Shown piece after piece: positions 3,001 to 51,000 of a stretch of DNA of 64,000 bases. Positions within the stretch are counted from its first letter, which is position 1. Every line of letters starts with the position of its first letter. The DNA comes from Raja brachyura (taxonomy: Eukaryota), in the NCBI GenBank assembly GCA_963514005.1, contig OY740798.1, positions 44,516,001 through 44,580,000 on the forward strand. Direction: 5' to 3'. Made by a program: the position numbers.

Positions 3001-6000
3001 ACTGTATATATTATTTTTTTTAAGCTAGAAGTCTAATCATTGTTTTTGGAAGAAAAATGTTTTCTACCAGGCCATTTTAAACTCAGGCCTAAATCAAAAT
3101 GGCATGCTACACTCTCCTAACACTACATCAGTTTGCAGTTGGTGAAATCTATGTCCATTTGCAAGGAATTACCTCCCGATTTCCCAAGAAATCCCCATAC
3201 CAAATATATTTTGCAAATAGTTAAATTAATATATATATTTTCATCTTACTAGGAATCAGCATATACCAGAAATTTGCATATTGTTCAAGTAGTTACATGA
3301 CCAATAACGTCCTCCCAATAATTGTTTTGAATTATTTCTTCTTGATGGTATCAATCACCGTTTGTTCAGCTAGATAATTCCCCAGAATCTTCTTTCCTCA
3401 CCAAGGATCATGTCGCTACTCTCTGTGGTTGGTATTGTGTATGTTCCACAACTCTTATTCTGTTGTCCTTATGTGAATATTTTTCTGTTTTTATAAAATC
3501 TGATAACACCCATCACACACAAACACAAAAAAAAACTTTCCATAAAAATTTTTGTTGCAGTTATGGTCCACTCGAGATTAGCTCCTGGACAGACTTATTG
3601 GATTGTGTCTTATTTTCAGGACTGAAGGGGAGAATGGCCTCTCATTTCTCCTCGTCCCCAGACCCTGACTGCTGATCTCTAATACTCGTGGAATCAAGCA
3701 GCACGGATGCAGGCCCTTTGGCCCAACTCATTTCTGCTGAGCATGATTCCCATCTAAGCTAGACACCTTTGCCTGAATCCAAGCTCTGCCAGAACTCAAT
3801 GAGTTGCCTCGACAAAAAAAAGTTGAAAAATAAAGCTGGCGTAATTCTGGTGGTGAGACCTGTTGGGATGATGTATTATCGACTCATCAATTAACACAGT
3901 GAAATAATGAACTGCACATTCCTTCAGCATGTTTCCTCCATCTTCCACCCATCCATTTAATCACATTTAATTTGGATAATGCATGCATTTCCACAATACT
4001 CACAGCTACATTTTTGCTGGTAGCAGCACTTGGATTTGTCATAAACCTTTCTGGGTTGCAGTCCATTTTGACAAACGATTGGTTTAACACTTGGACATTT
4101 CACTGACTTCACGGAAACAGTGTTATTCCCTTTGCATGTTGCCTTTGTGCAATTGTCCAGTTTCCAAGTCTCATTCATCTATGGTTCGTGGGGGGCAGGG
4201 GAAATGAACAATTGTAAGAAGTTAAGGCATTCACAGAATCCCTGAGGCTGGAGAAGGAGAAAACAACTACCACCCAACCAGACCTGAATCTCATTGTGCC
4301 AAGAACCCATTGAGATCTGAACCTTCAATTCCAATAAGGTCAGAAATAGTGCGGGGATGTGGCAGGGCAAAGAATCTCATGGGGATGGTTAAGAGACCTT
4401 CAATATATTATGGGGGTGTTCCCTTAAAATATCTATACCATTTAGACCCATAAATGTGACACAGGGATGAAAACCAATGAGCTCATTAGAGTCTTCTAAA
4501 GACATGTGTGATAAGTCTAATAGGTCAAGAAAACCAATCAGTTTAATCGAGGATGAACAAAAATTATTTGATAGGAAAAGGATGGCAAAACATGCTGATA
4601 TTTATCGGTTTTATTAAAATTGGATAACCCCCATCACCCATAAAAAACCCAGTTATGGTGCACTTGAGATGGGCTCTTGTGATGAGCTCCTTTGGTTTTG
4701 GGGGAGGTGGACCTCAATGATATTTTGAGAAGAGAGGGAAGCATTTACGTTTGTAAGGGAAATGACAGAAAAATAGAAAGAATATCATGGAAGGGTTACA
4801 TGGGGATTAGAAGGCCAGGGACAGCCAGGTAGGAGATATTCAGTAAAGAAGGGATAGGCGAGAAGCAATGAGCAGAGGGCCAGAATGTAGCTGGACATAT
4901 TTTATATCTCAGTAATCTGGGAATTCACTGGGTCGGGGGGAAACACTAAAACATGGGGTTTCATCGCATGCTGTGTCTGTTGCAGCAAAATCAAGAGCCT
5001 GAGCATCATATGTCACTGAGAGGCCCCTACAACATGTGGCTGGTAGACTGCACTGGTGCGGAATGCATAGAGGAAAGACTTTGGTTTGCCTTTGTCTGGG
5101 AATGAGTCCTGGTGGACTGTAGGTGAGGTGCGCCCCCTTCAGGTGAGGGTTGTCTACAGGTGGCTGGGGTGTTTGGGATTGGATGGCCTACCATAGCCTG
5201 GGTCGAGGGAGGAGGGACAAGGCTGCGGGGGGTGGGGGTGTACTTTCCTGGTCCATGGTGAAGGGGTTTGTATAGGGGCTGGCAGTAGGGCTGGCTGCCA
5301 GTTGTTATGTTGCTGGCTGGGAGAGGTGCTGTAAAGATTCATGAAGTAATGAGATTTTAGAGGACTCAGTGACTTGGGTTCCCAGCTGGTTGGGGAAGCA
5401 TCTCCTCACAGCAGCTGCAACAGCGGTAGATTGTTGACTTGCAGCGCCAGAGACCCGGGTTGGAACCTGACTACGGGTGCTGTCTGTACGAAGTTTGTAC
5501 CTTCTCCCCATGACCATGTGGGATTTCTCTTGGTGCTCCAGTTTCCACCCACACTCCAAAGATGTACAGGTTAGTAGGTTAATAGGCTTTGGTAAAGATT
5601 GTAATTTGTTTCCGGTGTGTAGGATAGTGTAAGTGTACGGGGTGTTTGCTGGTGGGTGCGGACTTGGTGGGCCGAAGGGCCTGTTTTGACGCTGTATCTC
5701 TAAAATTAAAAACTAAAAAAACGAATCGCCTTTTGGATAGGCACATGGAAGTGCAGGGAATAGACTTTGGATATGGATCATGTACAGGTAGATGAGAACA
5801 GTTTTATTTGGCTTCATGTTTCGGCACTAACATTGGGGCTGAAGAGCTTGTTCCAATGCTGTACTATTCTATGTTCTAAAGACCCCTGATGTCACGAGGA
5901 TACTCACAGCTCTCGGTGGGTGCAGGTCTGGGCAACCACTTGCTGGTACTGTTGTTGTTGGCGCTGATGTGGTTGGTAAAGTGGAAGTGGAGACTTCGCA

Positions 6001-48000: not shown

Positions 48001-51000
48001 CACATGAACAGATTGTAGTTCCTTTTGATGTTGGTGTTACTGTCACCGTTGTAGATGCTGGTGTTGTGGTTTCTGTTGTTGTAGATGTAGTTTCACATCT
48101 TCCTGTGTACTTCAGAACTTCACAATCCTCAGTACACAGAGTAACGTTACAGAGGCCTGATATACCTGCAGACGTCACTGTTGCCTGACCTGGAGGCAAA
48201 GTAATGAAAATCAGGTTGTGTACACCTGAATGTAATAAAACCATGAAATATCTGTATCTCCGCTAATGAAGCTGCTATTGCACTTGGTAGCTTTTGGACA
48301 TCGGTGTTTTCAGGGAACTGCTGGACTCATTATTTTCGAGACATTTCCCAGATATAGTGATGGCTGCTTAAGGACTCACGTGTACCTTAATATCAGTTCT
48401 CCAAATTCTCTTTCCAGACACTAAGTTTCACAATATTCCAAGATTCTTCTGAGATTTGGAACAACACCAACAGCCACCATGTAGACAAACACACACTAGG
48501 CGCAGGAACTACCTCTCAAATCCAATCCGCCAGTCATAGTGTTCTACAGCATGGAAACTCATCCAAGCTAACCAAATTACCTAATTGAATGTCCCATTTA
48601 CCTGTGTTTGGCCCATAATCATTTGAAACTTTCCCATGTACCCACCAGTCCAAATGTCTTTTAAGCCACAGTTTGATTCCTACTGTTATGATCTAATTAC
48701 CTAATATAACAGCTAATTTATTATATTATTAAACATTATTGTTTATTGCAAATTTGTTTGTTGTATTGTTGTGTTTAATGTGCCTATAAAGCCTCAGGAA
48801 GTAACAGTTTCAGTGTCCAGTCCTTATGAATATTATAATTAAACAATCGCGACTCTTGCTTTCTATGTTGTAATTATACCCTCCTGTACCACTTCCTTCG
48901 GCAGCATGCTCCACATACTCACCAGCCTTTAATGCATTTTTAATACCTCTTCAGTTTAGTTTAGTTGAGAGATACAGTGCAGAATGAGGGCCCTTTGGCC
49001 CACTGGGTCTGTGCTGACCAGCATTCCCTGCACATTAATGCCCACTAGGGACAATTTTTACATTTACCAAGCCAATTAACCTACAAAACTGCCCGCCTTT
49101 GGAGTGTGGGAGGAAACCGAAGATCTCAGAGAAAACCCACACAGGTCACGGGGTGAACGTACAAACTGCGTACAAATAGCACCCATAGTCGGGATCGACC
49201 CCAGGTCTTTGGCGCTGCATTCGCTGTAAGGCAGCAACTCTACCACTGAGCCAATAAGGTCATGTCTGTTATTTCTGTGATTTTAAATCACTCTCCCATC
49301 TACCCATTGTAATTTTTCAACTCTCATATCTTGTCCTGAATCTATCTCCCTCTGCTTTAGTAGATAGAAAATCTCCACTTCCACTGTTTTAAGAAAGAGA
49401 GAATCTTGTTTCTTTGAGAGAACAAAATCATCTCCAATCAGAAATGAGAGACTTATTTTAAATCAGATCCCTTGTCATTTTTAAATGTAGAGAAATCAGT
49501 GAATCAGGGAAGGTCAATGTGTTCATGGAAAGCAGCTGATGGACAATATGTGTCCACTGTTCCACAATGGGTATTCTCACACCAGAGTGAGTTTTATGAA
49601 CACAGTTTTTCTGCCATTGGTGATTATCATTGTACCCTGTTTCCGTGAACAAACTCAGAAGTGTGCAAAGGAAAGGCAAGCTGCAGTTTTCATGGGCATA
49701 ATTGGAGACAGATGATTGATGACAATTTGTGCAAACTACAATGTGTACTGAAGAATACTGCAAAACATAATCAAAAGCAAGAGAGAGAAAATAGTGCATG
49801 GTCACACTAATTGGGAAGGACCCAGAAATAATGATCAAGATTTGACAATCAAGATTTGTTAATAGAATACAATTAAGTAATGAATTAATTAGCAAAATTA
49901 CCTGGTGATAATATCTTCCCTTGTACTGTGCACGAGCATGTTGTTGTTGGTACGGTGGTCGTTGATGTGGGTTGGGTTCGTTCAGATGAAGTTTCAGTGG
50001 TAGTTGTGGTTGTGGCTGTCACTGTAGTGACTGGAGTTGTTGAGGTGGTCAGCAGTGGTTCTGTCTTTGGCACGGTGGAGGCAGTTGTGGTTGGGCTAGA
50101 TGTTGTGGTGGTGACTGTTGTCGGTAAGGTGGTGGTTGATGTTGGTTGGGTTGTTTCCGATGTGGTTTCAGTGGAGGTTGTAGTGATGCTATGTGTAGTG
50201 ACTGGAACTGTTGTAGTGGTGACTGTTGTCGGTACGGTGGTGGTTGATGTTGGCTGGGTTCTCTCGGGTGTAGTTTCAACGGAGGTTGTAGTTGTGGTGC
50301 TGTGTGTAGTGACTGGAGTAGTGGTGGTAGCTGTTGTGGGAGAAGTTGTCGTTGATGTTGGCTGGGTTCTGTCGGGTGTAGTTTCAATGGAGGTTGTAGT
50401 GATGCTATGTGTAGTGACTGGAGTAGTGGTGGTGACTGTTGTTGGTAATGTGGTTGTTGATGTTGGCTGGGTTCTGTCGGGTGTAGTTTCAATGGAGGTT
50501 GTAGTTGTGGTACTGTGTGTTGTGACTGGAACTGTTGTAGTGGTGACTGTTGTTGGTAATGTGGTGGTTGATGTTGGCTGGGTTCTGTCGGGTGTAGTTT
50601 CAATGGAGGTTGTAGTGATGCTATGTGTAGTGACTGGAGTAGTGGTGGTGACTGTTGTTGGCAAGGTGGTTGTTGATGTTGGCTGGGTTCTCTCGGGTGT
50701 AGTTTTAATGGAGGTTGTAGTTGTGGTGCTGTGTGTCGTGACTGGAACTGTTGTAGTGGTGACTGTTGTTGGCAAGGTGGTTGTTGATGTTGGCTGGGTT
50801 CTCTCGGGTGTAGTTTCAATGGAGGTTGTAGTTGTGGTGCTGTGTGTCGTGACTGGAGTTGTTGAGGTGGTCAACAGTGCTTCTGTCTTTGGAGCGGTGG
50901 AGGCAGTTGGGCTAGATGTTGTAGTGGTGACTGTTGTCTGTGAAGTGGTTGTTGATGTTGGCTGGGTTCTTTCAGGTGTAGTTTCAATGGAGGTTGTAGT

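Follow-up and report, generated by a model that had tools for sequence, protein, structure and literature searches.

Gel-forming mucins are usually described as a combination of D assemblies, a Pro/Thr/Ser-rich (PTS) domain and CysD domains of about 100 residues each. The CysD domains, of which MUC5AC has nine, MUC5B seven and MUC2 two, are folded, disulfide-rich domains alternating with O-glycosylated stretches between D3 and D4. They are characterized by a WxxW motif and five disulfide bonds (PMC11912381, PMC4948705), are covered by the Pfam model Mucin2_WxxW and are thought to give non-covalent contacts (PMC11933400, PMC11912381, PMC4948705). Here we consider a 64,000-nucleotide (nt) stretch of the genome of Raja brachyura (GCA_963514005.1, contig OY740798.1, positions 44,516,001 to 44,580,000 of the forward strand), hereafter the window, whose minus strand carries a mucin gene in which folded modules and short linkers would likewise alternate between D3 and D4. 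Different from CysD, the array module of this gene is 44 residues long, has three putative disulfides and no Pfam model, and occurs in 30 copies that follow one another exon by exon with a fixed 71-residue period. The best overall explanation, to which we assign a probability of about 0.78, is a MUC2/MUC5-type mucin with a spliced 30-module array located before VWCN (the domain name as used in PMC10082768) and VWD4.

The segment that follows E3 in human MUC5AC (8QSP, 8R1U, 8QTB, 9GVJ) has its length and the Cys framework C1, C3, C26, C31, C44 in common with an unsplit homologue of the module that occurs in the same skate gene (module 0). However, the MUC5AC segment is single copy with five Cys and module 0 has no internal intron, whereas the array module has six Cys and is split by a phase-1 intron. 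Fibronectin type I (FnI) modules and the E/VWC modules of VWF and mucins are also about 45 residues long and have five beta strands, in a two-stranded plus a three-stranded antiparallel sheet; five strands are predicted for module 0 as well, and these modules are the best Foldseek matches of its model, at weak E values, but the FnI arrays of fibronectin are not separated by mucin linkers. In cartilaginous fishes, a Cys-rich mucin domain likewise forms an array of many copies in the "Mucin-5AC" of the lateral-line cupula, for which 2 to 27 tandem CysD domains are reported in fish, with 27 in a skate and 19 in a catshark (PMC11765562). In that case the domain is CysD, with neither VWD/VWC ends nor PTS between the domains (PMC11765562), and both the gene and the fold are different. 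The mucin region of chicken Muc13 is likewise built from many repeated exons instead of one giant exon (PMC1552070), but Muc13 is a membrane mucin with plain PTS, where no folded module is rebuilt across splice junctions. No description of the 30-module architecture was found in the accessible portions of the open-access literature searched.

The array consists of 28 minus-strand exons, from 48189-47974 to 14643-14428, 26 of which measure 213 nt and two 216 nt, for 5970 nt in total (1990 codons). The scan of exon boundaries agreed exactly with the original prediction, made by a model from the DNA alone, as to exon number, summed length (1990 amino acids), coordinates and strand. Every exon (28/28) has a pyrimidine tract with an AG acceptor, a GTAAGT donor, a length that is a multiple of 3 and phase 1-1, and in all of them six Cys and an open frame are kept together with both splice sites. 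In each exon, the last two thirds of a module, with four Cys, precede a linker, and this is followed by the first third (the C-x-C hairpin) of the module after it, so that the 30 modules arise only by splicing. The intron lies inside the module, where it interrupts a Gly codon between the first and second bases. Since all the exons are phase 1-1 and multiples of 3, neighboring exons rebuild a complete six-Cys module at each junction, and the gain or loss of an exon keeps the frame. Two further exons downstream complete the series, and the exons are as follows:

47974 to 48189, minus strand: array exon 1, 216 nt, A-like (exon scan and typing)
47016 to 47228, minus strand: array exon 2, 213 nt, B-like
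44976 to 45188, minus strand: array exon 3, type A
44104 to 44316, minus strand: array exon 4, type B
42634 to 42846, minus strand: array exon 5, type A
41761 to 41973, minus strand: array exon 6, type B
40291 to 40503, minus strand: array exon 7, type A
39419 to 39631, minus strand: array exon 8, type B
37949 to 38161, minus strand: array exon 9, type A
37077 to 37289, minus strand: array exon 10, type B
35607 to 35819, minus strand: array exon 11, type A
34735 to 34947, minus strand: array exon 12, type B
33265 to 33477, minus strand: array exon 13, type A
32393 to 32605, minus strand: array exon 14, type B
30923 to 31135, minus strand: array exon 15, type A
30051 to 30263, minus strand: array exon 16, type B
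28581 to 28793, minus strand: array exon 17, type A
27709 to 27921, minus strand: array exon 18, type B
26239 to 26451, minus strand: array exon 19, type A
25367 to 25579, minus strand: array exon 20, type B
23897 to 24109, minus strand: array exon 21, type A
23025 to 23237, minus strand: array exon 22, type B
21555 to 21767, minus strand: array exon 23, type A
20683 to 20895, minus strand: array exon 24, type B
19213 to 19425, minus strand: array exon 25, type A
18341 to 18553, minus strand: array exon 26, type B, with one Thr-to-Pro change
15409 to 15621, minus strand: array exon 27, type A, nucleotide sequence identical to exon 13
14428 to 14643, minus strand: array exon 28, 216 nt, with an A-like 5' part and a B-like 3' part
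8893 to 9111, minus strand: older, diverged exon of the array layout, 219 nt, GTGAGT donor
5908 to 6092, minus strand: last module exon, 185 nt, in which the second part of module 30 and a short Thr/Pro linker are followed by the start of VWCN

Scanning the minus strand for the second-half pattern (C-x4-C-x3-C-x8-C) gave 30 of the 30 copies expected, namely, those of the 28 array exons and of exons 9111-8893 and 6092-5908. First halves are also 30 in number, contributed by the end of the large PTS exon, the 28 array exons and exon 9111-8893. The original prediction had spaced the first half as CxC-x3-G-x3-PG; a spacing of three residues in the second interval gave 0 matches and a spacing of four gave 29, and the motif has to be corrected to C-x-C-x3-G-x4-P-G. 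Exon 9111-8893 completes module 29 and, after a linker, opens module 30; the latter is the canonical copy preceding VWCN and has its second part in exon 6092-5908. Linker length is 27 residues for the core exons, 28 for exons 1 and 28, and 29 for exon 9111-8893. In the 28 array exons, 479 of the 758 linker residues (63%) are Ser or Thr. Both the 30 modules and the Thr-rich linkers of about 27 residues that had been foreseen are thus borne out.

A profile hidden Markov model (HMM) of the module, compared with all 2234 reading frames of the window, recovered the 30 plus 30 halves, module 0 and two relics, and no further intact copy among those frames; as the model was built from the array's own sequences, its strong matches follow by construction. 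The searches were run exon by exon, and what we state about complete modules rests on the two halves and on the unsplit paralogue. The 28 array exons encode seven distinct peptides. We could notice that an N-x-T sequon lies within the Cys framework of the type A modules and is missing from the type B modules (compare, e.g., 44976-45188 with 44104-44316). The 28 array exons contain 16 N-x-S/T sequons, all in A-type modules, and N-glycans would therefore sit on every second folded module, or knot.

At the genomic level, the array is a tandem repeat of a 2342-bp unit with two exons, A and B, and its 11 full units are 98.7 to 99.8% identical; this tandem organization excludes chance as the origin of the pattern. 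Across the 11 units, variable columns are fewer in the exons (3/426) than in the introns (61/1917; Fisher P = 0.0026). Exon A and exon B share 179 of 213 nt (84%) and 76% of their amino acids, whereas the introns flanking A and those flanking B can no longer be aligned, since 100-nt bins reach only 42 to 58% identity in a forced global alignment. Divergence is graded, with all Cys kept throughout: exon 9111-8893 has 44 to 47% amino acid identity to the array exons compared with it, A has 76% to B, and exons 1, 2 and 28 have 86 to 90% to their own type. Judging from the alignments, the array exons look selected. Seventeen nonsynonymous and 10 synonymous codon differences separate A from B, and for this reason the constraint would act mainly on the Cys/Gly framework.

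Upstream of the array lie the unsplit homologue and the PTS domain, which share one exon:

51616 to 51747, minus strand: module 0, unsplit 44-residue homologue with five Cys, directly after E3, at the start of the PTS exon (human MUC5AC in the Protein Data Bank [PDB], E 1.6e-22)
49902 to 51749, minus strand: large PTS exon, 1848 nt, phase 1-1, donor after 49902 (reading frame and splice sites)

Besides the unsplit module, the PTS exon encodes Thr-rich repeats of about 560 residues in all and, at its end, the first third of module 1. Its tandem repeat, at 50100-51452, has a period of 108 to 111 nt (36 to 37 codons) with higher-order periods of 213 to 216 nt and 384 nt, and is an ordinary mucin variable number tandem repeat (VNTR) lying beside the exon-level array. 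Module 0 matches human MUC5AC (8qsp_A 397-457) with an E value of 1.6e-22, in a partial match with about three quarters of the residues identical. Since the exon with TIL3 and E3 maps to 8qsp_A 327-380, the match falls directly after E3. The original prediction held the module to be single copy in mammalian MUC2/MUC5, at one position ahead of D4; this match makes the one-position part untenable. For the mammalian copy before D4, no solved chain covering it was found at E <= 10, and the second half in exon 6092-5908 gave a weak PDB match to the post-E3 stretch of MUC5AC (E 0.018). Given the match just after E3 in human MUC5AC, this module type would flank the mucin domain of MUC5AC-type mucins at both ends. 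In the maps reported for human MUC5AC, the region beyond TIL3 is unmodelled, E3 being too flexible, and TIL3 is the last domain built (PMC11933400, PMC11912381).

Both halves of the array module align without gaps to module 0, with C1, C3, G7, G13, C26, C31 and C44 in common, and the sixth Cys of the array module falls at aligned position 35. The Cys count of module 0 is odd. In Pfam, no family matched the array exons, their halves, module 0 or exons 9111-8893 and 6092-5908 at a meaningful E value, and none of FnI, E or VWC appeared at E <= 10. Comparison of an array exon with the PDB sequences gave only chance-level matches (best E 0.5), and exon 9111-8893 gave none. In the ESM Atlas, the array exon had no usable match, and module 0 had only leads under 0.9, one of them a cluster with 67% VWC2L_2nd and 25% VWC members.

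As to the fold, the AlphaFold2 model of module 0 has a mean predicted local distance difference test score (pLDDT) of 82 and five strands; it was obtained from an alignment of 13 rows, all from this gene and including exon-limited fragments. Among its 10 best Foldseek matches in the PDB, 8 are FnI domains of fibronectin and 1 is a VWC domain of collagen (probability 0.89 to 1.0, TMq 0.48 to 0.58), and at lower ranks there are the VWC domain of CCN3, chains of NEL and the FnI domain of factor XII, and N-terminal chains of MUC5AC (TMq 0.60). The comparison with VWC and FnI folds that had been proposed as a check thus finds these folds at the top, but with weak E values throughout (0.07 to 1). 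The E domain of D assemblies is itself described as FnI-like (PMC6851300). Furthermore, the E3 exon of the same gene starts with C-x-C-x3-G-x2-aromatic-x2-G, as the module does, and the module HMM matches this exon weakly (domain E 0.1). Reasoning from the model of the unsplit paralogue, we suggest that the module is a small, all-beta, disulfide-locked mini-domain similar to E, FnI and VWC, with a fold that resembles theirs weakly and a putative membership in their family.

Judging from its domain matches, the window contains the central part of a gene for a gel-forming mucin of the MUC2/MUC5 type and includes everything between D3 and D4, the N-terminal D1-D2 and the C-terminal VWC series and cystine knot lying beyond its 64 kb. 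The assignment follows from the D3 exons upstream and from VWCN and VWD4 downstream, which together with the PTS exon uphold the gel-forming mucin identity first proposed. The domains flanking the mucin region are encoded as follows:

63049 to 63363, minus strand: reading frame with the end of TIL and an E-module exon, upstream of VWD3 (Pfam TIL, E 8.5e-06)
62838 to 63077, minus strand: reading frame with the start of VWD3 (Pfam VWD positions 1-33, E 9e-09)
59572 to 59883, minus strand: reading frame with the end of VWD3 and the start of C8-3 (Pfam VWD, E 3.1e-06; PDB MUC2 965-1046, MUC5B 994-1075, MUC5AC 1002-1083)
58670 to 58885, minus strand: reading frame with C8-3 (Pfam C8, E 2.5e-17)
56449 to 56596, minus strand: exon with the end of TIL3 and the start of E3 (AG/GT sites; PDB MUC2 1139-1190, MUC5AC 8qsp_A 327-380)
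53976 to 54019, minus strand: 44-nt mini-exon that completes E3, with three Cys, entered in phase 2 and left in phase 1 (splice sites and frame)
3960 to 4178, minus strand: reading frame with the VWCN exon (PDB MUC2 7qcl_A 15-74, E 8.8e-11)
2528 to 2851, minus strand: reading frame with the start of VWD4 (Pfam VWD, E 2.1e-16; PDB MUC2 C-terminal chains 7qcl/7qcu/7qcn)

The resulting order is D3 (VWD3, C8-3, TIL3, E3), the unsplit 44-residue module, about 560 residues of PTS, the array of 28 plus 2 small exons, VWCN and VWD4. The D3 assembly (VWD-C8-TIL-E) directly upstream of the mucin domain is recognized by Pfam (TIL, VWD, C8) and by PDB matches to D3 of MUC2, MUC5B and MUC5AC; the PTS domain is represented by the 1848-nt exon with its 108- to 111-nt tandem repeats; and the fourth D assembly (VWCN and VWD4) lies downstream. 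The E3 mini-exon fits into the gap of 16 residues that separates positions 380 and 397 of the MUC5AC chain, and a PDB sequence search with its frame gave no match of note. As to the choice between MUC5 and MUC2, module 0 matches MUC5AC chains only, whereas the D3 exons score MUC2 at least as high as MUC5B, and MUC5B at least as high as MUC5AC. No Cys-rich WxxW frame was found on the minus strand between D3 and D4 by a crude scan for WxxW plus Cys. With about 2100 residues predicted for the array compared to about 560 in the ordinary PTS, this agrees with the earlier proposal that the array takes the place of much of the PTS/CysD core. PMC4948705 reports CysD-less Muc2/Muc5-type mucins in the frog (15/26), so that the lack of a CysD frame does not exclude membership in the gel-forming mucins.

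It is possible to hypothesize how such an array could have arisen. A tandem duplication that had one breakpoint within the PTS exon and the other in the following exon, immediately behind the module, would have generated a composite exon, made of the second half of a module, a linker and the first half of the following one. From an old composite exon, of the kind now seen at 9111-8893, the steps may have led to an A/B exon pair and then to the 2342-bp A/B unit, recently amplified or homogenized; the graded divergence points to such stepwise growth. By the simplest route, unequal crossing-over acting on a phase 1-1 exon would have multiplied complete domains in frame. If all the exons are used, the product would be a segmented rod of about 2100 residues, in which 30 folded, partly N-glycosylated knots alternate with 30 short brushes of O-glycans, and this rod would occupy the place of the CysD-interrupted PTS of mammalian MUC5AC and MUC5B. 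By analogy with CysD, its likely role is that of a protease-resistant spacer, with the knots as regularly spaced sites of non-covalent contact in the gel.

Traces of past rearrangements are visible inside the array and next to it, starting with two decayed copies of the array exon:

16247 to 16347, minus strand: truncated array-exon relic in the 2719-nt intron between exons 26 and 27 (blastn 82.5% over 63 nt; HMM E 4.3e-09)
9973 to 10101, plus strand: incomplete array-exon copy, inverted and decayed, in the 5316-nt intron that precedes exon 9111-8893 (blastn 82.5% over 103 nt, plus strand)

The first relic has kept the acceptor and the first 80 to 100 nt or so and has lost the remainder. It interrupts the strict A/B alternation, which suggests that a deletion took part of an A exon and one whole B exon at this place. 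In the second, a deletion has removed one Cys and the reading frame runs into a stop codon; to judge by these features, it is a decayed by-product of array rearrangement. Between 19425 and 45188, a higher-order structure could also be observed, in that 15 sites distinguish the unit starting at 45188 from the one at 40503, and 9 sites the unit at 42846 from the one at 38161, fewer than in comparison with their neighbors. Such a pattern fits a duplication of two units, 4.7 kb in length, at the 5' side of the array.

The introns hold other reading frames. On the opposite strand, a 136-codon frame in the B-to-A intron (22581-22991, plus strand) recurs in each 2342-bp unit, and most likely it stays open for no other reason than the identity of about 99% between the units. 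Frames resembling retroelement debris occur at 12817-13074 (plus strand) and at 9338-9598, 37673-37957, 39961-40185 and 56867-57328 (minus strand). One of them reads like the tail of a reverse transcriptase of a long interspersed nuclear element, and several hold a recurring "...PAEFLQ..." reading, which may correspond to a repeat that is common in the genomes of sharks and rays.

Several observations weigh against a spliced 30-module array in a MUC2/MUC5-type mucin. The module has no Pfam family, and the best PDB sequence match of the array exons has an E value of 0.5. The model used to assign the fold is that of the unsplit paralogue and not of an array module, its 13 alignment rows come from one gene, with second-half rows that start with two intron-derived residues, and none of the Foldseek E values is <= 0.001. 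The preference for MUC5 over MUC2 comes only from module 0, and the D3 exons match MUC2 slightly better; the absence of CysD derives from a simple pattern scan. The codon differences between A and B give no strong signature of purifying selection outside the Cys framework. Moreover, recent amplification, and not long selection, explains most of the integrity of the core exons, because these are so alike. Finally, the inclusion of all 28 exons is assumed from their intact, consensus-like splice sites, and a symmetric phase makes exon skipping equally in frame.

This last point is the basis of the alternative that survives best, although we consider it unlikely. The array exons could behave as cassettes, so that transcripts hold a variable and perhaps small subset of them and far fewer than 30 modules, with the genomic array serving as a reservoir of length variation. 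Any subset of exons that are all symmetric and multiples of 3 would be in frame, and the donor of the PTS exon has the same phase as every downstream acceptor. However, the GTAAGT donors and the acceptors, with their long pyrimidine tracts and AG, are strong and uniform, the exons vary less than the introns, and the copies outside the chain decay, which suggests that the intact ones are seen by selection.

An assembly artefact, in which a small number of true A/B units would have been expanded too far or haplotypes piled up through wrong joins, so that 30 modules would be an overestimate, appears highly improbable. Units that are 98.7 to 99.8% identical over 2.3 kb do belong to a class of repeats that assemblers handle badly. 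Nevertheless, in pairwise comparison the 11 units differ at 5 to 31 of 2343 positions, no two of them being identical, and they include the structured pairs 45188/40503 and 42846/38161. The window has no runs of N, and the multi-copy status of the exon is attested independently of the core by the diverged edge exons (1, 2 and 28), the relic and exon 9111-8893.

That the array is an expansion in decay or without function, lying within a long intron, with the PTS exon joined directly to exon 9111-8893 or 6092-5908 as it would be in the canonical gene, is hardly credible, since, even if relic exons lie in the same introns, 28 of 28 exons keep an open frame, six Cys and both splice sites while both relics lost their frame or were truncated, and the A and B exons are still 84% identical where their introns can no longer be aligned.

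Going beyond the preferred reading of a spliced 30-module array, one could speculate, with a good deal of doubt, that in a MUC5 of cartilaginous-fish type an exon-level "VNTR" of an FnI-like module has replaced the CysD/PTS design. With the intron inside the module, each tandem duplication of an exon would yield one more complete domain in frame, so that copy number would evolve like that of a minisatellite, in units of folded domains. The 30 evenly spaced knots might act as a multivalent scaffold in mucus, binding other mucin chains or microbial adhesins such as those that use strand addition to bind FnI modules. Such a mucin would represent a new way to build and tune a mucus gel.

Surveys of mucins in fish and amphibians rely on Pfam-type models and PTS predictors to recognize domains, and, since the module has no Pfam model, they would most likely fold it into "PTS." We suggest that the human post-E3 segment deserves a name of its own and further study as a domain. 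Should the array be expressed, it would indicate that a small module bracketing the mucin domain in MUC5AC-type mucins, and left unmodelled after D3 in the human structures, can become the main body of a mucin. It would also offer a clear case of domains being amplified through a repeat unit, the exon, that straddles two of them. It would also provide a natural, regular polymer of knots and short glycan brushes, which may be useful for studying the effects of folded interruptions on the mechanics of mucus.

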